Source of the DNA: Bacilli bacterium
GTDB lineage: Bacteria; Bacillota_I; Bacilli_A; RFN20; CAG-826
DNA length: 64,000 nucleotides
NCBI GenBank assembly: GCA_022482735.1
Contig: JAKVOO010000001.1
Span: forward strand, 1,399,004-1,463,003
Reading direction: 5' to 3'
The position numbers and the translations under genes were made by a program. This document shows, one piece after another, positions 143 to 51,725 of this stretch. The notes beneath the pieces were generated by a model that worked only from the letters and a program-made list of their open reading frames with translations, had not been told where the DNA came from and did no database searches. Within the stretch, counting starts at the first letter, position 1. The number at the start of each line of letters is the position of its first letter.

Positions 143-171
143 AAAAAGTAACTAATAAAGAAAGTAACTAA

Positions 172-226
172 TAAAAAAAGATCTTAGCAAGATTGGTATA
201 TTATCAAAACTAAGATCTTTTTATTT
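172..226. terminator. Bidirectional rho-independent terminator-like hairpin (aagatcttag…ctaagatctt) flanked by A/T runs. It sits at the end of the speB-speD operon on the minus strand.
   Basis: A 10-bp perfect inverted repeat at 178-187 and 210-219, followed by T-runs on both strands. Confidence 0.4.
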
Positions 227-230
227 TAAA

Positions 231-1034
231 TTACCGACGAATAATTTTTTGCCATTTCATTGAGGCCAAATGCTCATCATGAGCAATATTTGCCTTAATC
301 TTATCAATGTGCATCGCTCCTCTAGCAACTAAAGACAGTGATTTTACTTCGCCTAATTTTTCAATATGGCTACGGACAACTGTATAATCAAAAGGACGGC
401 AAGAGAAAACATCGGCATAAATCTTTTTAGTTTTATATTCATAGTGAAGAGCAATATGGCTTTGCGCAATAACGATAATTCCAGATAAAAACTTAGGGTT
501 CTTCATTGTTGATTTCAAAACAAAAGCCCGGGTTATTGGGTCCATATTTATATCAAAGACAATATTTTCAAGAAAATCAGCCATGTGCTCCATATCAACG
601 ACGGTGCTACTTTTTACTTCACCCATTAGGTGGGGGCCAAAATCATCTTTTGGACTGTATGGTGCCATTTCAAAACTGGGCTTACTGCGATCGGTAGAAA
701 TAAAAACCGATGACTTGAGTTCAAATGAGAGCCGAGTCTGCAAAAATGGAACTACTTGATCTTCATCAAAGCTTTTAGTGGTAAAAATGTCTAAGAAGTA
801 GCATTCCCGAAGAGGAAAGGTGTGAATAGTAATATGACCACCCTCTAAAAGGACAAAGGATGACACCCCGATATCTTTCTTTACCTTGCCATAATAGTAA
901 GGAATAATTTGCGGTGGGCAAATTGGTGCCAGTTTTAGTTTATAGGCTAAGGTAATAAGCGTTTCATTAATTAATTTGATGTCATCAAGTTGGCGAGGAT
1001 TCCCACCATAGGCGTCAAGCGTAATGTGTTTCAT
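231..1034 (-). CDS. Tandem-duplicated class-1b S-adenosylmethionine decarboxylase (SpeH)-like pyruvoyl enzyme proenzyme, 267 aa with two halves. The N-terminal half has 'LLEGGHITIHTFP' and the C-terminal half has 'IAQSHIALHYEY…ADVFSC'. It may be a neofunctionalised decarboxylase; see findings.
   Basis: Both halves match the SpeH motif (V)ISESH(L)TIHTxPE…VDVYTCG. Only the C-terminal half keeps the Ser at the self-cleavage position. The next gene downstream is agmatinase. Confidence 0.7.
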   Translation of the reverse strand: MKHITLDAYGGNPRQLDDIKLINETLITLAYKLKLAPICPPQIIPYYYGKVKKDIGVSSFVLLEGGHITIHTFPLRECYFLDIFTTKSFDEDQVVPFLQTRLSFELKSSVFISTDRSKPSFEMAPYSPKDDFGPHLMGEVKSSTVVDMEHMADFLENIVFDINMDPITRAFVLKSTMKNPKFLSGIIVIAQSHIALHYEYKTKKIYADVFSCRPFDYTVVRSHIEKLGEVKSLSLVARGAMHIDKIKANIAHDEHLASMKWQKIIRR

Positions 1035-1057
1035 TTCTTTATCTTTTTGGTTCTTTC

Positions 1058-1939
1058 TTATAAGGTTTCTTTCTTTTGTTGCAAGACATAGAATATTTCA
1101 TAAAGCGTCTTTAATCCAAGCCACGAAGTTATGTCGTTATTATCGAGAGGTGGACTAATTTCGACCAAATCCATCATCTTTATAGGGAGATGTTTAAAGG
1201 CCGATAGAATAATGGCTAGTAGATCGGTTGACTTCGGTCCAAAGGCTTCCGGAGTTCCCGTGCCTGGAGCGAATGCAGGGTCATTAGCGTCGATATCATA
1301 ACTCAAATAAACAAGATAGTCATCATTAAATTTTTCATTTAGATAGTCAATTACTTTTTGCGGTCCATTTTCTAGAATAAAAGAGGCATTGAATATCTTT
1401 ATTTCGGGATGCGAAGCAAAGTAAATGACTTCCTGCTCTTCGTAGCCACGAATACCAATTAAGCAGATATCTTCTGTCGCGATACCATTATCGATAGCGC
1501 GCCGTACGGGAGTCGCATGAGAGAAATGACTGCCTTCATATTCATCGCAAATATCAGGATGGGCATCAATATGGATTAAACCGGGTTTTTTATTAACTTT
1601 TTGGCAGTAGCTAATAAATCCATCAATGGTTCCAATGTTGACACTATGATCCCCGCCAATAAAAAGCACAAATTTCTTTTTCTCAAGTAAAGAAAGAGAC
1701 TTCGCCCGCAAAACCGAGTAATCTAGTTTATCGGCATTTCCTTCATCAAATAGACGAACGTGGTTAAGTAGATATCCATCCTTTGTTAAGGCAGGCAGGA
1801 AGCCACTTAAAAACCGAAGACGATCGGGGGCTTTTGAAGCACCCTTGCCAACCGAGGCATTTTGATCAAAAGGTAGCCCGTATAATAGTATATCGGCCAT
1901 ATCTTCTGTTTCGACTAATAGATCACGAAATGATTCCAT
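1058..1939 (-). CDS. speB: Agmatinase / ureohydrolase (arginase family).
   Basis: Mn-binding motifs GGDHS, DAHPD and SYDIDANDPAFAPGTGTPE. The likely start is ATG MESFRD at 1939 with an AAGAAAGGG RBS. The ORF-track start at 1963 is a TTG. Confidence 0.8.
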   Translation of the reverse strand: MESFRDLLVETEDMADILLYGLPFDQNASVGKGASKAPDRLRFLSGFLPALTKDGYLLNHVRLFDEGNADKLDYSVLRAKSLSLLEKKKFVLFIGGDHSVNIGTIDGFISYCQKVNKKPGLIHIDAHPDICDEYEGSHFSHATPVRRAIDNGIATEDICLIGIRGYEEQEVIYFASHPEIKIFNASFILENGPQKVIDYLNEKFNDDYLVYLSYDIDANDPAFAPGTGTPEAFGPKSTDLLAIILSAFKHLPIKMMDLVEISPPLDNNDITSWLGLKTLYEIFYVLQQKKETL

Positions 1940-2107
1940 TTCCCGGCCCTTTCTTGCTAGCAAAATTTGCTCACTTAAAATATAGAGATTTTATCTATTA
2001 CTTGCAATTATTTTGTTTGTTTTTAATGAATTTCTTTAGCCAGGTGTTTTTTTACTAGGAAAAGTAGTAATTATTGTCTATTATTTAGGTGCTATCTTTA
2101 GGTAATT

Positions 2108-19257: not shown

Positions 19258-20725
19258 ATGGCAGAAGTAATTCTTAAGGATGTTTGTAAGCGCTACGAGG
19301 GCAACCCCAAAAATTCTGTGACCGATTTCAATATCACAATTTCGGACAAAGAGTTTATCGTCTTCGTTGGCCCATCAGGTTGTGGAAAGTCTACTACCCT
19401 CCGGATGATTGCCGGTCTAGAAGATATCACAAGTGGCGAATTATATATTGATGGACGGCTCTGTAACGATGTTACACCGAAAGATCGGGGAATCGCGATG
19501 GTTTTCCAATCTTATGCCCTATATCCTCATATGACGGTTTACGATAATATGGCGTTTGGTTTAAAAATTCAACATTTACCAAAGGCAGAAATTGATAGCC
19601 GAGTTAAAGAAGCGGCGCGGATTCTTGAGATTACCGAATACCTTCAACGGAAACCAAAAGCTCTATCTGGTGGTCAAAGACAACGGGTGGCTTTAGGGAA
19701 GAGCGATTGTTCGTCATGCTAGTGTCGTTTTAATGGATGAACCATTATCCAACCTTGATGCTAAATTACGGGTGCAAATGCGTTCGGAAATCATTCGTCT
19801 ACACGAACAAATGAATGCAACAACAATCTATGTTACCCACGATCAAACGGAAGCTATGACAATGGCTACGCGGATCGTAGTTATGAAAGATGGCTACATC
19901 CAACAAATTGGTTCACCAATTGAGATTTACCATAAACCTCGTAATTTGTTTGTTGCCTCCTTTATTGGTAGCCCGGCAATGAATTTCTTTACTGGCATTG
20001 TCAAAGGGAGCAAGATTGAACTTGTTCGCCGGTATAAAGAAGATGTCGATGCTAAATTGATTAAATTTGTTAAGATTGATGGCAATACCATTTATCGCCC
20101 AATCGCCAAAATTAATGTCACTTTAACTGACGATGAGCATAATGTGGTTAAAGGAGCTGCGGATGCCGTAGCCTCATTACCAGCATCAGTTAAGGAAAGA
20201 TTGCCCGAAAAAGAAAAAGGTGCTGAAGGGGTGTGGACGGTTGAAGGCAAGGTTGCTTCCTTTATTAAGTATGAAGTAATCAGTGTCAAAAAGACTGATG
20301 CAAAATACATCAGTGTGATTGAAAATACGATCTTCGTTCCTTCTACCGATAACCGAATTGTGTTAGACGTTCCATCTCAATTCCTTGATGCGCTTAAACC
20401 TTATGAAGGCAATATGGTAATATTCGGTATTCGCCCGGAAGATGTGCATTATAAAGAAAGCCAAGTGGCGCTAGACTATCCATCAAGTAATTTGGAACTT
20501 GACGTAAGCGTCGCGGAATTACTTGGCCACGAATATATCCTTCATGGTGATTTTGCCGGTCAAAAATTAGTGGCTAAAATTCCCGTTGTAAGTGACAAGA
20601 CAATCCATATCGGAGACAAGATTGACTTAGCGCTTGATTTAGGGAAGGCTCATTTCTTTAAGATTGATGCCCCTGAAGAAGCCGAGTCTTTACCAGAATC
20701 AGAAAAAGGACTTTGCATTATTTAA
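19258..20725 (+). CDS. msmK: Sugar ABC transporter ATPase (MalK/MsmK-like) with an unusually long C-terminal regulatory domain. The reading frame is broken by a 1-nt insertion near 19699 (ORFs 19258-19722 and 19733-20725).
   Basis: Walker [11 protein letters not shown]-loop, signature [12 protein letters not shown], then the frame shifts. Reading +1 restores [20 protein letters not shown], the Walker B region. AAAGGAG RBS. Confidence 0.8.
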
Positions 20726-20759
20726 CTAAGCCACTTTTCAAAACTCGATTACTTAACAC

Positions 20760-20796
20760 AACGCCTAGCTTTCATTGGGAAGCAGGCGTTTTTTTG
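20760..20796 (+). terminator. Rho-independent terminator after the ATPase gene.
   Basis: aacgcct…aggcgtt hairpin plus TTTTTTT. Confidence 0.55.
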
Positions 20797-21066
20797 CATT
20801 ATTTTTGACCTTTTTATTTACTTGCCATTTTTGGCTACTTAACAAAATAAGTAAAAGTCGAAAATTTAGCACTGAAATTGAAAAAAACGACCTTTTTTCC
20901 ATTTGAAACCGCTATCAAAAAAACTTTACAAGATTAACCTATTAAGTATAATGTAATTGTCATTAAACAAAATTACCGCGAAAAGGACCATTCGTTTAGC
21001 GTTATTCGTAAGAAATTGTTTTTTACTAGCGGTCCTTCTCAAGCAAAAAAGGAAAGGAGGGTAATT

Positions 21067-22471
21067 ATGTTTAAAAAGTCAAAAGTTGCTGTTGTTGCTT
21101 TGACTTCGCTGCTATTAGCAGCATGTGGCGGAACTCAAGGATCGACCACTAGTTCGACTACTAGTGATTCGACGAGTATAGCTAATCCCGTTACAGTTAC
21201 GGTTACCGATGACACGGTTAGGTCCACAATCGATAGCTCATTCTTACCAGGCGTTACGGCGCAGAGAATTCGTCTAACAGTTTGGTCAGAAACGGAATCT
21301 CATCCGTTATTTAAAGAACTGATCAGTGAATTTGCTAAAAAATATTATTATGATGAATCTTCAAATGCAAAGTATGAATTTATTGTCACCATCGGTGATG
21401 AATTCTCCGATGCAGCTACCAAGATTACTCAAGATTTAGATGTTGCCCCTGATGTCTTTGGTTTCCCCGATGATCAACTCGGAAAATTGGTTGATGCGGG
21501 AGCCATCCAAGAGATAACCGGTTCTACCAAAACTTGGGTGAACGAAAACAATGTTCAAGCCTCGGTTTCTTCGGCTACATATAACAATAAACTATATGCA
21601 TTCCCACAAACGGCTGATAATGGTTACTTCTTGTACTATAATAAGAATTATCTAACGGCCGATGATGTTAAAACCGTTCGATGGAATTCTCGCCAAACTG
21701 GAATCCACCAATCAACAAATTGTCTTCCCATTTGAAGATGCTTGGTACATTCCATCTTTCTTCTTCAACCAAGGGAACATTTCTTATGATCCTGCTACCA
21801 AGACGATGACTTGTGATTTTGATAACACAGTCGGTCTTGAGGGTGCAAGAGGATTTGCCAACATTGTTCAAGAACACACGGCAGCCCTAAAGATTGCTGA
21901 CGTTAACTCTAACGATGCGCTATTTGCCACAAAAGATAGTGAAGGGCAACCAATTACTCCAGTCGCGGTTGCCGGTGTTACCGGAACTTGGAATGCTGGA
22001 CCATTGAGAGCCGCTATGGGCGATGGCTATGCGGCGACTAAGTTACCGACATTTACTCCTTACGATGAAAATGGCACCGCGCTTGCTCAACGTCAAATGG
22101 GATCATTTGCCGGTTCAAAATTAATTGGTACCAAGGCTCAAGACGATCCGGATAAGTTATACTTCTCAAGTTTACTTGCCAAGTATTTAACCAGTGAAGA
22201 TGCCCAAGTCCGTCGTTTCCAATCTCAAGGATTTGGACCATCCAACGTTACGGCGCAAAATAACCCGGCGGTTCTTGCAGATGTGGCCATCTCCGCGCTT
22301 AATGCTCAAGCTCCATATGCGGTTAGCCAATCGCGTTCAGTCGGCAATACCTTCTGGGATCCAACTGCGGCTTTTGGAAAATCGGTGGTTGCTAATGATT
22401 ATGGCGAAGGATTGACTCTAGCCGATGCTTTAGCGGCTTGGGTAGCCGCCCTCACAACCCCAGCGGCTTAA
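21067..22471 (+). CDS. Maltodextrin/oligosaccharide-binding lipoprotein of the ABC transporter (MalE-like SBP). The frame is broken by a 1-nt insertion in an A4 run at 21670-21673 (ORFs 21016-21735 and 21662-22471).
   Basis: Lipobox LLAACGG and a Ser/Thr linker. SBP family-1-like sequence that continues in the +1 frame (…DDVK|PFDGILAKLEST…). AAAGGAGGG RBS. Confidence 0.75.
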
Positions 22472-22492
22472 TTCGATTATTTTATGAAATGT

Positions 22493-22535
22493 ATTTAGGG
22501 CGAATGTCGGATTAACATTCGCCCTAAATTTCTAT
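22493..22535 (+). terminator. Very stable hairpin (14-15 bp perfect stem) between the SBP gene and the permease genes. It is a partial terminator/attenuator candidate.
   Basis: atttagggcgaatgt-cggattaa-cattcgccctaaat followed by a T-rich tract (ttctatt). Confidence 0.5.
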
Positions 22536-22552
22536 TATTAAGGGAGTTAATT

Positions 22553-24142
22553 ATGAAAGAGCAAAATGTAAAAAAACTTGGCTTCTTTCCTTGGATCGGT
22601 CAATCAATTCTTGATTCAATAATCAAATTTGGAAAATGGTTGCTTGATTTCCTTTGGACAATTATTAAAGCTTTCATCAACATCTTTGTCTTTGCGTATA
22701 AAATCATTGTCAAAGTAGGTAAGGCGATTGGACTATGGTTTTATAATTATGTAAATAGGTTTATTAAAGGAAACTTTAAAACCCGATTATCCTATCTCTT
22801 TGTCGGATTTGGACACATTACCAACGGCCAAGTTGTCAAAGGCGTGGTTCTACTAATTTTAGAGGCACTATTTATCGTATTTATGGTTCTTCCTCAAGGA
22901 GGGGCATACTGGTTAAGCCAAATAAACATATTTGGTCAGACTGGTGGCGATGGAATGCGCTGGATTGGCGACATTGGAACAACATATAATTATGTCGTGA
23001 TATCCAAATTCGGCGAGGTACTCATCACGAAGACCACCGGATTTGCTTCCAACTCTATGTTAGTAATGCTTTACTCGATAGCCACTCTATTAATTATTGC
23101 GGCCTTTTTTGCCCTTTATACTTATGGAATCAGTGCCGCCTATTCGCTTCAAAAGAAAAAAGAAGAGGGAGGGCACATTGCTTCCTTTAAGGAGGAGACG
23201 CACGCCTTATTAGATCGCCGCTTCCATGCTACAGTTTTAAGCCTCCCAACGTTAACGATATTGACGTTTACTATTCTTCCTTTGATATTTATGATCTTAC
23301 TGGCTTTCACGAATGCTAGTTTATTTTATTTCCCCCCATCAAGAAGATTTGCTTGGACCGGGCTTGATACTTTCGGTCAACTTTTCGGTGGAAATGCCGG
23401 CTATTCGTTTGCTATTGGCGAGATTTTTAAATGGACAATTTTGTGGGCGGTTCTGGCCACTTTCACCAACTATATTGGGGGAATGATTTTGGCACTACTC
23501 ATCAATAAAAAAGGAATTAAATTTAAAAAGATTTGGCGAACGTTATTTATTATATCAATCGCCATTCCGCAGTTTATCTCCCTTTCAATGATGGCAAAAT
23601 TTCTTGCTAAGGATGGGCCGATTTTTAATGCCCTAGATGCCTTGGGTTGGATGAAACCAATCAATATTTTTAATGATACGCGTTCCGCACGGACGAGCGT
23701 CGTTTTAATTAACATGTGGATTGGTATGCCTTATACAATGCTAATCACGTCAGGGATATTGATGAATATTCCGGCGGATTTATACGAATCCGCGCGTATT
23801 GATGGCGCGGGGCCAGTTACTCAATTCTTTAAGATTACGCTTCCTTATATGTTGTTTGTCACCGGTCCGTATTTAATTACTCAATTTATCGGTAATATAA
23901 ATAACTTTAATGTTATCTTCTTTTTGACTGGTGGTGGACCGGATATTACCACGCGCGGTATCACATATGGCCGAACAGATTTATTGATTACTTGGTTATA
24001 TGATTTAACCCTCGGCGGTTCTAAGCAAGAATACGCGATAGGTTCAGCCATCGGTATTATCGTTTTCTTAATTTCGGCTTTTATCTCGCTGGTGATGTAT
24101 AGCAAATCTTCAGCTAATGTTAACGAAGATGAGTTTCAATGA
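22553..24142 (+). CDS. ABC transporter permease, MalF-like (long N-terminal extension).
   Basis: Multiple TM helices and the EAA-type motif region ARIDGAGPVTQFFKITLP. AAGGGAG RBS. Confidence 0.8.
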   Translation: MKEQNVKKLGFFPWIGQSILDSIIKFGKWLLDFLWTIIKAFINIFVFAYKIIVKVGKAIGLWFYNYVNRFIKGNFKTRLSYLFVGFGHITNGQVVKGVVLLILEALFIVFMVLPQGGAYWLSQINIFGQTGGDGMRWIGDIGTTYNYVVISKFGEVLITKTTGFASNSMLVMLYSIATLLIIAAFFALYTYGISAAYSLQKKKEEGGHIASFKEETHALLDRRFHATVLSLPTLTILTFTILPLIFMILLAFTNASLFYFPPSRRFAWTGLDTFGQLFGGNAGYSFAIGEIFKWTILWAVLATFTNYIGGMILALLINKKGIKFKKIWRTLFIISIAIPQFISLSMMAKFLAKDGPIFNALDALGWMKPINIFNDTRSARTSVVLINMWIGMPYTMLITSGILMNIPADLYESARIDGAGPVTQFFKITLPYMLFVTGPYLITQFIGNINNFNVIFFLTGGGPDITTRGITYGRTDLLITWLYDLTLGGSKQEYAIGSAIGIIVFLISAFISLVMYSKSSANVNEDEFQ

Positions 24143-25177
24143 TTGAAAGGAAGAACAAGAACATGGAATTACAAAATACTAATGTAGTCGCTAAACACAA
24201 AAAACCACTTTTCTTCCAAAGCATGCATTTTCGGCGCGGACTCGGAAATACACTTATTTATATTTTGCTTGGAGTTATGGCGGTCGTATGGATGTTTCCG
24301 ATTATTTGGCTGATGGCTCAATCTTTTAGAGCCCCGGTTTATTCCTATACGATTAATCCTTCCGGACAGATGGTTATAACGGCGAGCAATCTTGGATTTA
24401 CTCCGATCAGACCAAATCATTGGTGGGGATATATATTCCCGGAAAAATGGAGTTTAGATAACTATTACCTGCTTTTTACCTGATACGGCTAACTATGATT
24501 ATCTTCACTACTTTCTCAATACTTTAGTTGTGGCCATCTTTACCTGTATTATTGCGACGATTATCGTCTTGCTTACTTCTTATGCTTTTTCACGGCTCCG
24601 GTTTAAAGCCCGCAAGCCGATGATGAAGTTATTGATGATTCTTGGAATGTTTCCTGGATTTATGTCGATGATTGCTATTTACTTTATTCTTAAAGGAATC
24701 GGTTTACTACCAGGAGGTGGAAGAACAAGCGTTCCAACAGCCAATTATTTGATTGCAATTGTTTTGGTTAACATTTCTGGCGCAGCGATGGGATATTATG
24801 TTTCCAAGGGATATTTTGACACTATTTCCCGTTCAATTGATGAAGCTGCAGAAATTGATGGGGCAAATAAAGCACAGATTTTTTGGAACATTACTCTTCC
24901 ACTTTCTAAACCGATTGTTATTTATCAAGCCTTAACGGCATTTATGGGGCCATGGGGCGATTATATTTTCAGTAGCACGATTACCCGGACAGAAAAACGG
25001 GCCTGGTTGGTTGCGCAGGGGCTATTTTCAATGATCGATGGATTAGGTGACTTAAATATATACTTCACTCGTTATGCGGCTGGATCAATTCTCCTATCGG
25101 TGCCGATTGTTATTCTCTTCATTTTCATGCAGAGATACTACGTCTCCGGTGTAACGGGTGGCGCAGTGAAAGGATAA
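24139..25177 (+). CDS. ABC transporter permease, MalG-like. The frame is broken by a 1-nt indel in a T5 run at 24473-24477 (ORFs 24139-24483 and 24530-25177).
   Basis: The N-terminal TM segment and the C-terminal EAA motif AAEIDGANKAQIFWNITLP lie in two frames. The start overlaps the malF-like stop codon. Confidence 0.75.
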
Positions 25178-32850: not shown

Positions 32851-32877
32851 GCTCACCTTTGCGGGTGAGTTTTTCAT
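32851..32877 (+). terminator. Rho-independent terminator.
   Basis: ctcacc-tttgcg-ggtgag hairpin plus TTTTT. Confidence 0.5.
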
Positions 32878-32939
32878 TTTATTATTCTTTTAACTATGTT
32901 AAAATAATAATAATAAATATATCGACACTGGTACAAATT

Positions 32940-35767
32940 ATGAAAAAAAGAAACCCAATATATTTTTTAGGATTAATTACTATGCTTTTTGTTTCTTCAT
33001 GTGGCAAGAATGACAATTCGTCGACCCATAGTGACACTAGTGAATTAATCACCAGCGAAAACACATCCGATAGTTCTTCACTGAAAGACACATCAACAAC
33101 GACAAGTGAAACGCCGATTACGGGAACACCCGATTCGGTTTCATTATTTTATCATCGCGATGATAACGGCTATAGCGATTATGGAATTTGGTATTGGACG
33201 GATAAGGTCGCAGGAAATTTGCTTCCCTTTGAAACATATGACGATAATTTTGCGGTAATCAATATTCCGAGCACCATGTATGAGGGCGAGAACGGATTTT
33301 ATTTAATTGTTCGAAAAAAATCGACATGGGATGGTCAAAGCCCGGATTTTTATCTTGATTTTTCGCAGTATACTTTAAACTCGGATTTAACGATGGATGT
33401 CTACATTATTTCGACGGAAACCCTCGATGTTGAAGCATATTCAACACCTAAAGAGGCGCTGGGCAATCGAATTGTAAGCGCCACACTTACCTCTTTTTCC
33501 ACCATTAAAGCAACGGGAACGGCTCCCGCCAATCAATGGTCACTTTATTTGAATGATGAGAAAATTGACGAACAAGCTGGCTCGGATTCAAATGAGGTAA
33601 TTTTTAACTTATCAACCGATGTCGATCTTACGGATAAATATACAATAAAAGCTGTATTTCCAGATGCTATGGACAAAATTCGTTCCAAAGTAGTTTCGGC
33701 CGCTCCCCTATTTAACACCAGCGAATTTGATTCGCGTTACGCTTATGATGAGGATGATTTAGGAGCGGTTTATTCTTTAGAGTCAACGGTTTTTAAACTT
33801 TGGGCTCCGACTAGCTACGAAGTGACGCTCTTTCTCTATAAAGTTGGCTATACCTCTAAAGAAACGGGAAATATACTTCACGATGTCCCTCAAAAGCGAA
33901 TACCAATGGAGTACGCCGGTCAAGGCGTATATAGGGCTGAGGTTGCAGGTGATTTAGATCGGATGTATTACACTTATCTTGTTAATAATAGCAATGGAAA
34001 AAATGAAGTTATTGATCCATATGCGAAAAGTGCAGGACCTAATGGTCGTCGCGGGCAAATATTAGATTTTGCTAAATATGAGCCTGAAAATTTTGATAAT
34101 ACAACATTTTCCGATATTGCCTCCCCGAATGATTTAATCGTTTATGAAATGCATGTTCAAGATTTGACTAGCGATTCATCTTGGAATGGCGATGAGGCTA
34201 ATCGCGGCCATTTCCTTGGATTAATCGAATCAGGAACCACATATTCTATGGACCAAACTACGGTTACTACCGGGTTTGATCATATCAAGGAATTGGGTAT
34301 TAATGCCGTTCAAATCATGCCTTTCTACGACCAAAGTAATGATGAACTTAACCCCGCTTATAACTGGGGATATAATCCAGCAAATTATAATGTTCTTGAA
34401 GGTGGATATTCATCTAATCCCAAATTAGGCGAGGTCCGAGTTCAAGAATTTAAGCAAGTAGTTTCCGCTTATGCCAATGCGGGCATTCGAATTATCATGG
34501 ATTTGGTCTATAATCACGTGGCAAGTTTTTCTAGTTCTCAATTCCAAAAAATAGTTCCAGATTACTATTTCCGGCGAAACGCCGATGGAACTTTAAAAAA
34601 TGAATCGGGAGTTGGCAACGATATTAAAACGGAAGCCACAATGATGAGCAAGTACATTGTCGATTCAGTGAAGTTTTGGGCAAGCGAATACCACATTATG
34701 GGATTTCGATTTGATTTAATGAGTTTAATTGATGATGCGACTTTACAAAAAGTTGATGCTGCACTCAAAGCGATTAATCCCGATATAGTTGTTTGGGGTG
34801 AACCATGGAGTGGTGGTGGCTATATGGGACCAGCCAAAGTTTATTCAGCAGCCCTTAAAGATACGAGTGTTGCTGCGTTTAATGATGTTGGTCGGAACGC
34901 CATAAAAGGTGATAATAATCTAAATGGAAATGGTTCGCAATATGGATGGCTTCAAAAAGAGCCAGCCCATAATCAGAGCAATGTCAGCTATTTAAACCGC
35001 GTAAAGGGAATGTTAGCCGGGTATATGGGCGATTACTATGAGGCAACAAATTACACCGATCCAAGCAAAACGGTCAATTATGTTGATTGCCATGATAACT
35101 TTACAATTTTTGATCACTTGCTAGCAACAATGGGAAATAATCCCGATGTTTCGGCGCGTGCAAGTCTAGTTGCCAATTCCTTGGTTTTAACCTCATTTGG
35201 AACACTTTTTTTCAGGGCGGTGACGAAATAATGCGCTCAAAGGAATATGATCCGACTACAGAAATAGGAGCTATCTTTCTATCTACTCATGGCGGCGAGT
35301 CCGTTAAGATTGGTGACAAATACTATTCGGGAAACTCATATAATTTAGAAAGCACTGTCAATTCTTATAAGTGGGCAGATAAAATCAAATACGCGAGTTA
35401 TTTCGAAAGTTACAAGAATTTAATTGCGTTAAGAAGAAACAATCCCGCCTACAAAATGTATGATAGCGATGATATTTCTGCTCATTTTGGTTACTGGAAT
35501 AATGTTCAAGACTTATCCTATAGCGCAATTGCTAGTTACAACACTAAGGCGGCAGAATCATCTGGAGCGATATATTCATTTTATACCGGCATGCTCTACG
35601 GAAGTAGTACAGCAAACACAAATATTAATACCAAGCAAACAATTTCTTGGGGTGCGGGTGATTGTATTGTCCTATTTGATTCAACGGGTGAGCTCACGGG
35701 CCAAACGCTTTCTTCGTCTATTTCGCTTAGTTCTTTGCAAACCGTTATTGTTCAGAGGTTGTCCTAA
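32940..35767 (+). CDS. Second type I pullulanase (GH13), lipoprotein-anchored. The frame is broken in a T7 run at 35206-35212 (ORFs 32859-35231 and 35231-35767).
   Basis: Lipobox FVSSCGKN. YNHV, GFRFDLMS, YVDCHDN and GEPW. Continues in the +1 frame (…GTLFF|QGGDEIM…) and aligns with the pulA C-terminal region. Confidence 0.8.
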
Positions 35768-50389: not shown

Positions 50390-51725
50390 AATGTGGCTAA
50401 CTCAATGCAACACCTTGATTATTCGGTTATAAGTCTTCTTTGCTTGCGGGTTGATTGATGGTTAGATTATTTGCTGTAGTCTAACCTTTTTGTTTGGAAT
50501 TCTATGAATGTTTATGACATCTAGGAATTCCTTTCCAAACTTATTTTTAACTAAGTCATAGGGAGTTTTGTCTCCTTTTGACTTTCTTACGTATGAGTTG
50601 ATGTTTGAAAACATCTCATCAACTTGTTCTTGAGTGAGGAAATCCAGACTCTTTCCTTTAGGAATCATGTAACGGATGAATTCGTGATTTCTCTCACATT
50701 CTGATTTATCGGTTGATCGATATGGATTGGTGAAGTAGGTGCGGCATATCTTTTCACCGTTTTGATCAGTCTCAATCTGGTTGAAATAGGAGAACTCGAC
50801 TCCATTGTCGGCCAAGTTGATGGGAAGTATCTTCTTAACCATCTCATTACCTAACTTATTAAATAAACGGATAACTTTTGTTCGCACATCAACAGGCGAG
50901 CTCTTTTTGATGAGGATGCCAAATTGAAAATTATATTTTGGAAATGTAATAGTGAGTATTGCTTGTTCATCACTTATTTTTCCAATGACTGAATCATATT
51001 GAACTATGTTCTCCCTTTTGTGGTGTTTAACATAGTTAGTAAAGTCTTTATACATTCTTCCTATCAAAACTCTAATGGCACGAATCTTCAATTCTTCAAG
51101 TGACTTTATGTCGCTGTGCTTATATGTCACATAGCGTCGAAGTTCATGAGGTCGAATACTCAGATTTCCTCGATAACATAATTTTCTGATGGTTCTTTCG
51201 TGACATAACATGGACAAAACCTTATTTGAAATATAAATATGATGAAGTGATTGTCCTAGATGAACTCCTTCACTAACAATCTCGTTTATTATTTTGATTT
51301 TCTCCGGAGAAATCTTTGGTTTACTTCTTGAAGACTGCCTCAAGTTTTTGGAGCGGGCCTCTGCTTCATTAAAATTATAGTAATATTTGTCCTTAGAACA
51401 AGTTTTGTATGGGCAGGCATTGCAAAGTCCATTTAGTTTATTTCTTCTCTCACAATCTGGATAAGAGCAAGTTTTAACAACTGTAAACTTATGTATTTCT
51501 CGAGAGATTGTTGATTTGTTGACACCCAAGCGAGTACCTATTTGTGTGATACTTTTACCATCATGGATACAAGCTTGGATTATCATCCTATCCTCAATGG
51601 TTAAATGCTTTCTCTTTGCTTTCATTTGCTATATCTCTCCTTTCTAAAAAGCAAAGCAAAGAAGACAACATAATTCTAAAACAAGAGTAAACTCGTCAGG
51701 TTGCATTAAGATTGTCACTTAACCA
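50390..51725 (-). mobile_element. IS30-family insertion sequence of about 1.34 kb with a single transposase gene and imperfect terminal inverted repeats. The ends contain a CAATGCAAC motif that resembles the CAACGCAAC in the IS30 IR. Boundaries are accurate to about ±25 bp.
   Basis: Left end …ggctaactcAATGCAACacc (about 50392-50415). Right end …ggtTGCATTaagattgtcac (about 51700-51722). The two are mutually reverse-complementary with mismatches. Confidence 0.7.
50462..51625 (-). CDS. IS30-family transposase (N-terminal HTH plus DDE integrase core).
   Basis: HTH_38-like DRMIIQACIHDGKSITQIGTRLGVNKSTISREI. 387 aa, which is within the IS30 size class. Confidence 0.85.
   Translation of the reverse strand: MKAKRKHLTIEDRMIIQACIHDGKSITQIGTRLGVNKSTISREIHKFTVVKTCSYPDCERRNKLNGLCNACPYKTCSKDKYYYNFNEAEARSKNLRQSSRSKPKISPEKIKIINEIVSEGVHLGQSLHHIYISNKVLSMLCHERTIRKLCYRGNLSIRPHELRRYVTYKHSDIKSLEELKIRAIRVLIGRMYKDFTNYVKHHKRENIVQYDSVIGKISDEQAILTITFPKYNFQFGILIKKSSPVDVRTKVIRLFNKLGNEMVKKILPINLADNGVEFSYFNQIETDQNGEKICRTYFTNPYRSTDKSECERNHEFIRYMIPKGKSLDFLTQEQVDEMFSNINSYVRKSKGDKTPYDLVKNKFGKEFLDVINIHRIPNKKVRLQQII

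Follow-up and report, generated by a model that had tools for sequence, protein, structure and literature searches.

A fused two-module S-adenosylmethionine decarboxylase-fold protein encoded with an agmatinase in gut Bacilli: a candidate pyruvoyl-dependent arginine decarboxylase

The gene pair described here lies on the reverse strand near the beginning of a 64,000-nucleotide stretch (the window) of contig JAKVOO010000001.1, assembly GCA_022482735.1, of a Bacilli bacterium, and encodes an agmatinase-like ureohydrolase followed by a 267-aa protein that NCBI currently names S-adenosylmethionine decarboxylase (AdoMetDC). Our analysis suggests that the latter, hereafter the window protein, is a single chain of two AdoMetDC-fold modules of which only the C-terminal one retains the catalytic serine, and that it is probably a pyruvoyl arginine decarboxylase. 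As suggested by conserved gene context and gene fusions, the tandem enzyme would convert L-arginine to agmatine and the co-translated agmatinase would hydrolyze agmatine to putrescine and urea, making the operon a self-contained two-step route from arginine.

The AdoMet_dc profile (PF02675) matched the window protein in two stretches (E 9.7e-26, 90.7 bits, gathering cut-off 25), in agreement with the initial annotation of this DNA, which had described a 267-aa protein with two AdoMetDC-like halves. Compared with each other by BLASTP, the halves showed marginal similarity (24% over 34 residues, E 0.004), and hence not this similarity but the profile match together with the predicted fold establishes the repeat. 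The N-terminal half was aligned with SpeH of T. maritima (1TLU/1TMI), VLLEGGHITIHTFP being matched to VVISESHLTIHTWP, and the alignment is gapless through the catalytic strand, where VVISES63HLTIH68TWPE...FTC83 of the T. maritima enzyme becomes VLLEGG66HITIH71TFPLR...FTT86. The pyruvoyl-forming Ser63 is replaced by Gly66 and Cys83 by Thr86, and His68 is kept as His71. The C-terminal half reads IIVIAQS192HIALH197YEY...FSC212 and holds the complete Ser/His/Cys set, with HYEY standing where the HT(F/W)P motif is absent. On the DNA, Ser192 is encoded by AGC (459-461), Gly66 by GGT (837-839) and Cys212 by TGC (399-401), and the codon of His71 occupies 822-824. Two further statements of the initial annotation, that serine is present at the serinolysis position only in the C-terminal half and that GGH takes the place of ESH in the N-terminal half, were borne out by these codons and by the alignment to 1TLU.

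A word-indexed search returned 417 clusters of homologs, nearly all of 265 to 273 aa and, where named, designated 'MAG: S-adenosylmethionine decarboxylase [Bacilli bacterium]'. An exhaustive search (E <= 0.001) gave 601 representatives, comprising tandem proteins down to about 30% identity and then single-module proteins matching mainly the N-terminal half; the family occurs mostly in uncultured gut Bacilli and Clostridia. Residues G66, H67, H71, S192, H193, H197 and C212 are invariant in 37 close members. Across 21 distant members H67, H71, IAES192H, H197, FSC212 and D7 are invariant and G66 is not (first-sequence numbering), so that the residue pattern is not a product of chance. Asp54 and Arg76 are conserved as well. 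The motif pattern across the family is GGH.T.HTF(P/S) in the N-terminal half and IA(E/Q)SH...H(Y/V/F) in the C-terminal half, and most gut members have Gln, not Glu, before Ser192. Mean pairwise identity amounts to 56% for the N-module, 56% for the C-module and 35% for the linker; the halves being equally conserved, the dead half is evidently under the same constraint as the live one.

AlphaFold2 prediction with 37 homologs yielded a confident model of the window protein (pLDDT 89, pTM 0.89), in which the order of strands and helices occurs twice and which superposes on human AdoMetDC over 196 residues at a sequence identity of about 7%. The model and its superposition suggest that the chain forms a pseudo-heterodimer, a design already proposed in the initial annotation. 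In this predicted structure the two class-1b AdoMetDC-fold modules pack as a four-layer alpha-beta-beta-alpha sandwich within one chain; the same sandwich is built by a homodimer in the bacterial enzyme and by a monomer in the eukaryotic enzyme (PMC5201418, PMC10407285). The proenzyme would cleave itself between Gln191 and Ser192, turning Ser192 into an N-terminal pyruvoyl group, and the predicted chains of 21.7 kDa (residues 1-191) and 8.9 kDa (residues 192-267) would stay bound together. The active site of human AdoMetDC is shared between its halves, one contributing the pyruvoyl residue and Cys82 and the other Ser229, His243 and Glu247. By this analogy, the window protein would possess one composite active site, to which the C-module would give pyruvoyl-192 and Cys212 and the N-module His71, and the mirror site, occupied by Gly66 and Thr86, would be dead. 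In the SpeD1(S79A)SpeD2 mutant of D. phosphitoxidans the N-module is unprocessed, the C-module is processed and activity is exerted via the C-module (PMC10407285); therefore, a fusion of this kind can be catalytically competent.

The partner encoded upstream matched the Arginase family of Pfam (PF00491, E 2.3e-61). Its best NCBIfam model was that of agmatinase (TIGR01230), with 159.3 bits under a cut-off of 174.3, and the arginase model gave only 100 bits. All Mn ligands align with those of E. coli SpeB (GGDH, DAHPD and DIDxxDP, here DIDANDP), along with the APGTGTP loop. The closest PDB relatives are proclavaminate amidinohydrolase, agmatine ureohydrolase, guanidinobutyrase and guanidinopropionase, with arginases scoring lower. 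Judged by its sequence, the upstream protein is a member of the agmatinase-type branch of the arginase family.

For the analysis of gene context, one genome per species was taken, giving 80 loci of up to 21 kb each (about 10 kb on each side; approximately 1.2 Mb in total), and all open reading frames (ORFs) were clustered. The source labels of the loci include Mollicutes, Anaeroplasmataceae, Acholeplasmatales, 'Staphylococcus sp. CAG:324', Ca. Caccosoma and Ca. Pelethenecus among Bacilli, and Ca. Scatosoma, Christensenella-like bacteria and Eubacteriales among Clostridia. The agmatinase gene was located directly upstream of the tandem gene and in the same direction in 63 of 78 loci, and the other flanking genes differ between lineages; the operon with agmatinase that had been noted earlier in the window is hence kept as a pair in 63 species-level genomes. 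The spacer between the two genes ranges in these loci from -29 to 71 nt with a median of 0, including many overlaps of 1 or 4 nt, which suggests that the pair is often translationally coupled.

In 17 Clostridia-type loci (L068-L084 except L071 and L072, which carry the simple Bacilli-type pair) the tandem gene resides inside a conserved six-gene block. The first gene of this block encodes an agmatinase in four loci and an agmatine deiminase in twelve, and is unassigned in the remaining one (L081); the deiminase matched PF04371 (E 1.3e-83), and TIGR03380 scored 298 to 351 bits in these partners. The order within the block (e.g., L074:3747-12381) is agmatinase or agmatine deiminase, a protein of ~660 aa, an AAA ATPase with a KGGVGR motif (NF047398), a protein of ~750 aa, the tandem gene and a protein of ~515 aa with a CorA-like N-terminal region (PADLOC PDLC01175, E 4e-7). 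From its gene content, the block looks like a conflict or defense-type module inside the polyamine gene pair.

Two proteins from separate contigs (P0200 and P0270, 69% identical) combine the tandem module and a following agmatine deiminase in one chain. The nearest relatives of their deiminase part, P0272 and P0273, have instead an N-terminal pyridoxal phosphate-dependent decarboxylase of the alanine-racemase fold. In P0272, the one of the two that was scanned, the decarboxylase part had biosynthetic arginine decarboxylase models as its best NCBIfam matches, and the deiminase part scored 449 bits with TIGR03380, above the equivalog cut-off. Thus, the tandem module fills the slot of an arginine-decarboxylase-like domain in a related fusion. 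Both this fusion and the interchange of agmatinase with agmatine deiminase argue for a guanidino amine, and not ornithine, as the compound that passes between the partners.

Spermidine synthase was not found in the window or the 80 loci (phmmer and tblastn, E. coli SpeE); grouping with bona fide SpeH together with a speE gene nearby or elsewhere had been named beforehand as a sign that would speak against an arginine decarboxylase. Homologs of SpeA and SpeC were likewise not found in the window or the 80 loci (tblastn, E. coli queries), in keeping with the earlier statement that no arginine decarboxylase is present locally, the unrelated archaeal-type family of pyruvoyl arginine decarboxylases (PF01862) not having been explicitly searched for. 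No polyamine genes were recognized by eye among the remaining ORFs of the window. Li et al. (2023) selected arginine-decarboxylase candidates by the absence of speE and of a canonical decarboxylase and by linkage to agmatinase or to agmatine deiminase and amidohydrolase genes, and confirmed the activity in many phyla (PMC10407285). The same signs are seen at the loci of the present family, namely linkage to agmatinase or deiminase genes and, in the window and the 80 loci, the lack of a local SpeE, SpeA or SpeC homolog. The proposal of a candidate arginine decarboxylase made in the initial annotation is therefore supported by the agmatinase/deiminase context, by the fusions and by the absence of a nearby SpeE, and the activity itself is predicted from these.

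Residues near the presumed active site bear on the substrate as well. In T. maritima the residue after the proline of HTWP is Glu72, the counterpart of the ribose ligand Glu247 of the human enzyme. An acidic residue after HT(F/W)P is absent from both halves of the window protein. In the N-module of the tandem proteins, the residue directly after the proline is almost never acidic and is hydrophobic instead, and the residue two after it is Arg in 134 of 139 proteins; the nearest single-module relatives keep HTFP followed by an acidic residue. The NCBIfam equivalog model of AdoMetDC (TIGR03330) gave 67.8 bits with the window protein, under its cut-off of 75.65. The missing acidic residue and the sub-cut-off score argue against S-adenosylmethionine (SAM) as the substrate without proving arginine. 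One relative, P0121 (267 aa, 48% identical to the window protein), has Ser at the N-half serinolysis position (LLEGSHITIHTFP) and reaches 76.1 bits with TIGR03330, just over the cut-off; it may represent an intermediate or have two sites.

Several points weigh against the assignment of arginine as the substrate. According to Li et al. (2023), AdoMetDC-derived arginine decarboxylases cannot be reliably separated from AdoMetDC by sequence, and the sole marker they give to distinguish the two is the proline of HT(W/F)P (PMC10407285). This marker is ambiguous here, because the catalytic C-module lacks the proline and the N-module has it; the N-module is expected to line the live site and in keeping HTFP carries the mark of a bona fide AdoMetDC. 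Agmatinase and agmatine-deiminase homologs can also act on N1-aminopropylagmatine (PMC13625781), so that the genomic neighborhood would fit a spermidine route as well. The search for speE and for further decarboxylases spans the window and the 80 loci, the genome being ~1.48 Mb in size. His197 is invariant although it is expected to face the dead site. Finally, a soil and sediment clade of high-GC tandem proteins has neither agmatinase nor deiminase genes nearby, its neighbors being, e.g., phosphofructokinase, pyruvate kinase and ABC transporters, and the deep family may hence lack a single function.

The PF02675 match and the current NCBI name suggest as an alternative that the window protein is a bona fide AdoMetDC. 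From its product, decarboxylated SAM, an aminopropyltransferase with its gene elsewhere would form N1-aminopropylagmatine, and the adjacent ureohydrolase, or the deiminase in other genomes, would convert this to spermidine, as in the Thermus/Thermococcus type of pathway. We consider this unlikely. Apart from the PF02675 match, it draws on the HTFP kept in the N-module, on the members that just pass TIGR03330, such as P0121, on the documented action of agmatinase/deiminase homologs on N1-aminopropylagmatine (PMC13625781) and on the fact that the window covers only 4% of the genome. However, speE is the obligatory partner and adjoins SpeD fusions (Li et al., PMC10407285), and no SpeE homolog occurs within ~10 kb in the 80 loci or in the 64-kb window. 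The window protein itself stays under the TIGR03330 cut-off, and the acidic residue after the proline is missing from both modules, the N-module having a hydrophobic residue and then Arg in its place. Moreover, two further genes would be needed elsewhere, yet translational coupling is confined to this pair.

Of similarly low probability is a pyruvoyl decarboxylase for another amino acid, either L-ornithine (with an arginase as the partner), carboxyaminopropylagmatine or another guanidino amino acid giving an amine that the partner would hydrolyze. AdoMetDC homologs have indeed become ornithine decarboxylases (PMC10407285), the arginase-fold partner lies under the agmatinase equivalog cut-off and has hydrolases acting on several guanidino compounds among its nearest relatives of known structure, and Gln, not Glu, precedes the Ser in most gut members. 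The diagnostic signature of these ornithine decarboxylases (SpeDC), Q..ETS/L.SGHF..Y with Gln, Thr, Phe and Tyr near the catalytic strand, which was taken from the supplementary alignment of three fusion proteins (PMC10407285), was however not found in the C-module, which reads IIVIAQS/HIALHYEY. The partner scored 159 bits with the agmatinase model compared to 100 with the arginase model, arginases were its weaker PDB matches, and the deiminase interchange and fusion point away from ornithine; on these sequence comparisons, the pairing of an ornithine decarboxylase with an arginase is unlikely. The carboxyaminopropylagmatine route requires extra genes, none of which was seen near any locus. 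A non-catalytic pseudoenzyme or regulator that modulates agmatinase or another protein in the manner of the trypanosome prozyme is very improbable, as the Ser/His/Cys set of the C-module is invariant across the deep family, which is not expected without catalysis.

Regarding the origin of the arginine decarboxylase candidate, a neighbor-joining tree was built from 35 N-halves, 35 C-halves and 54 single-module sequences (52 uncharacterized relatives and the enzymes of T. maritima and A. aeolicus). The N-halves grouped together in 44 of 50 bootstraps, and the C-halves formed a clade of their own in 40 of 50. In none of the 50 bootstraps were these clades sisters, and their mutual distance exceeds the distance of either to the single-module proteins. 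Each half being monophyletic and the halves not being sisters, the tree indicates one ancient fusion event. Going by these sequences, a fusion of two already diverged paralogs would be as likely as an internal duplication. The origin implied by the term 'tandem-duplicated' of the initial annotation would hence be one of two equally likely readings.

Further architectures were observed around the family. A tandem branch with a C-terminal radical-SAM domain (P0169 and P0282, 596 to 599 aa) is present on at least nine contigs (e.g., L088:2585-4375 and L089:3046-4836), with a PPDK_N/PEP-utilizers gene 3' of the fused gene; in L091 a radical-SAM gene is placed three genes downstream of the tandem gene. 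P0158 (480 aa) and P0180 (571 aa) carry a region of ~240 to 330 aa before the tandem module, which has no Pfam match and by eye somewhat resembles HAD-type hydrolases. Single-module relatives of ~135 to 160 aa (MLDGYGC...IAESHISIHTFP(E/D)K) are encoded on metagenome contigs, mostly of high GC (L141-L169). At least 15 of these contigs have an agmatinase-like gene within ~400 nt 3' of the single-module gene, and one has an agmatine deiminase homolog nearby; from this arrangement, the genes are probably arginine-decarboxylase/agmatinase pairs. Only single-module homologs, and no tandem proteins, were found in the phage collection.

The coordinates of the gene pair, of the protein modules and of the adjoining signals are given in Table 1. 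JGI gene calls on contigs with identical proteins set the same limits for both genes, and an alternative TTG start at 1963 would lengthen the agmatinase-like protein by eight residues to 301 aa. The two genes look like a two-gene operon because a divergent intergenic region lies 5' and a terminator hairpin 3' of them. On the other side of the divergent region, which is 145 nt long, is a phospholipase-D/cardiolipin-synthase-type gene. Promoter-like sites in this region are as numerous as expected from shuffled sequence, and the one listed in Table 1 is therefore weak evidence. The hairpin has an RNA fold energy of -15.9 kcal/mol (z = -3.66), and none of 200 shuffled sequences folds as well. It was missed by a consensus terminator scan because its stem is AT-rich, and it is a probable intrinsic terminator common to the operon and the facing convergent gene.

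Table 1. Positions of the gene pair, its protein modules and adjoining signals in the 64,000-nucleotide window
Feature	Position	Strand	Remarks
Agmatinase-like ureohydrolase gene	1058..1939	(-)	293 aa from ATG; first gene of the operon
Spacer, agmatinase stop to tandem-gene start	1035..1057	(-)	23 nt, read from the sequence
Fused two-module AdoMetDC-fold gene, candidate pyruvoyl arginine decarboxylase	231..1034	(-)	267 aa, ATG start
N-terminal module, residues 1-115	690..1034	(-)	Gly66 and Thr86 replace Ser/Cys; His71 and HTFP kept
Linker, residues 116-131	642..689	(-)	Least conserved segment, 35% mean pairwise identity; lower pLDDT
C-terminal module, residues 132-245	300..641	(-)	Predicted cleavage Gln191/Ser192; His197, Cys212
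C-terminal helix, residues 246-267	234..299	(-)	Invariant Trp261; model helix at residues 252-266
Hairpin directly after tandem-gene stop	169..222	(-)	14-bp stem then U-run; probable intrinsic terminator
Promoter-like site	1979..2007	(-)	TTGCAA, 17 nt, TATATT; 5' of the agmatinase gene

The surroundings of the operon vary between strains. A strain-variable element is located ~5 kb from the operon, beyond a Zip transporter gene (L002 and L003 compared with L001 and L004), and in some strains with an identical operon an integrase and small phage-like genes replace the lactate dehydrogenase/phosphatase region. Farther away, the window contains an IS30-type transposase gene (387 aa, 50462-51625, minus strand) between nrdD/nrdG, encoding anaerobic ribonucleotide reductase, and a CNNM/CorC-type gene pair. 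An ABC transporter at ~19 to 25 kb was considered as a polyamine importer and rejected; its neighbors are amylases, pullulanases and 4-alpha-glucanotransferase, and for this reason it is assigned to a maltodextrin locus. Several ORFs of this maltodextrin-utilization locus (alpha-glucosidase, ABC transporter, amylases, 4-alpha-glucanotransferase and pullulanases; 19258-25177 and 32859-35767) are split. A 1-nt frameshift at 19722/19733 divides the ORF of the MsmK/MalK-type ATPase, and those of the MalG-type permease and of a pullulanase are broken at 24483/24530 and 35231, respectively. The ORF of the sugar-binding protein has a frameshift in the window, but a 99.3%-identical contig (L085) encodes the intact protein of 467 aa. 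The splits are due either to indel errors in a long-read assembly or to true pseudogenes.

If the window protein is a true arginine decarboxylase, it would close the gap at the start of putrescine synthesis in a large group of uncultured gut bacteria, and the current label S-adenosylmethionine decarboxylase would wrongly imply spermidine synthesis and affect microbiome models of polyamine and agmatine metabolism. We give roughly even chances to the wider reading that the family is an unrecognized class of prokaryotic single-chain AdoMetDC-fold pseudo-heterodimers with a dead N-terminal and a live C-terminal half, independent of and opposite in polarity to eukaryotic class 2 AdoMetDC. Such a class would provide the main arginine decarboxylase and putrescine route of abundant uncultured reduced-genome gut Bacilli and of some Clostridia, and in Clostridia arginine/agmatine turnover would perhaps be coupled to a conflict or defense-like system. 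It would represent a second independent conversion of a homodimeric two-site pyruvoyl enzyme into a fused one-site chain, in mirror polarity to the eukaryotic enzyme, and bear directly on how Li et al. (2023) model the emergence of eukaryotic AdoMetDC (PMC10407285). As a compact natural system, the tandem protein may help to understand why one active site is lost. These findings are of relevance to specialists in polyamines and enzyme evolution and to the annotation of metagenome-assembled genomes from the gut.

AdoMetDC-derived arginine decarboxylases and SpeD-SpeD fusions are known already (PMC10407285), and the window protein differs from the published fusions in its reversed polarity, its partner gene and its taxonomic home; full-text literature searches found no description of a fused architecture with a dead N-terminal and a live C-terminal module. 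A close parallel is offered by the SpeDA proteins, including the arginine decarboxylase of S. solfataricus (PMC10407285), which share with the window protein the AdoMetDC fold and the Ser/His/Cys set, are encoded with agmatinase or agmatine deiminase and have neither speE nor a canonical decarboxylase nearby. The characterized SpeDA proteins are, however, single-module enzymes of ~120 to 160 aa that form homodimers, whereas the window protein is a fused chain with one of its two modules dead. SpeH, the prokaryotic class 1b enzyme (T. maritima 1TLU/1VR7, A. aeolicus 2III), likewise forms a homodimer. It has two active sites and carries an HTWPE motif, and the TIGR03330 model of this enzyme gives the window protein a score under the cut-off.

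In architecture, the window protein resembles the SpeD1-SpeD2 fusions of D. phosphitoxidans, Ca. Omnitrophica OLB16 and V. vadensis (PMC10407285), which also consist of two AdoMetDC-fold modules in ~270 to 320 aa. In the fusion of V. vadensis, as in the window protein, one module is devoid of active-site residues, but there the degraded module is the C-module. In SpeD1-SpeD2 fusions the N-module is formed by a bona fide AdoMetDC that has a Ser of its own, the C-module is dead or acts as an ornithine decarboxylase (ETS), and the gene precedes speE. Conversely, the window protein has a dead N-module and a live C-module with the (E/Q)SH motif, its gene follows that of agmatinase with no speE nearby, and its taxonomic home is another one. 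Eukaryotic class 2 AdoMetDC (human 1MSV/1I72, potato 1MHM) is similar to the window protein in being a fused two-half monomer, but it bears the pyruvoyl Ser68 and Cys82 in the N-terminal half, with the opposite polarity, and has extra insertions and a different substrate. The family of the window protein and eukaryotic class 2 AdoMetDC appear to have arisen independently.

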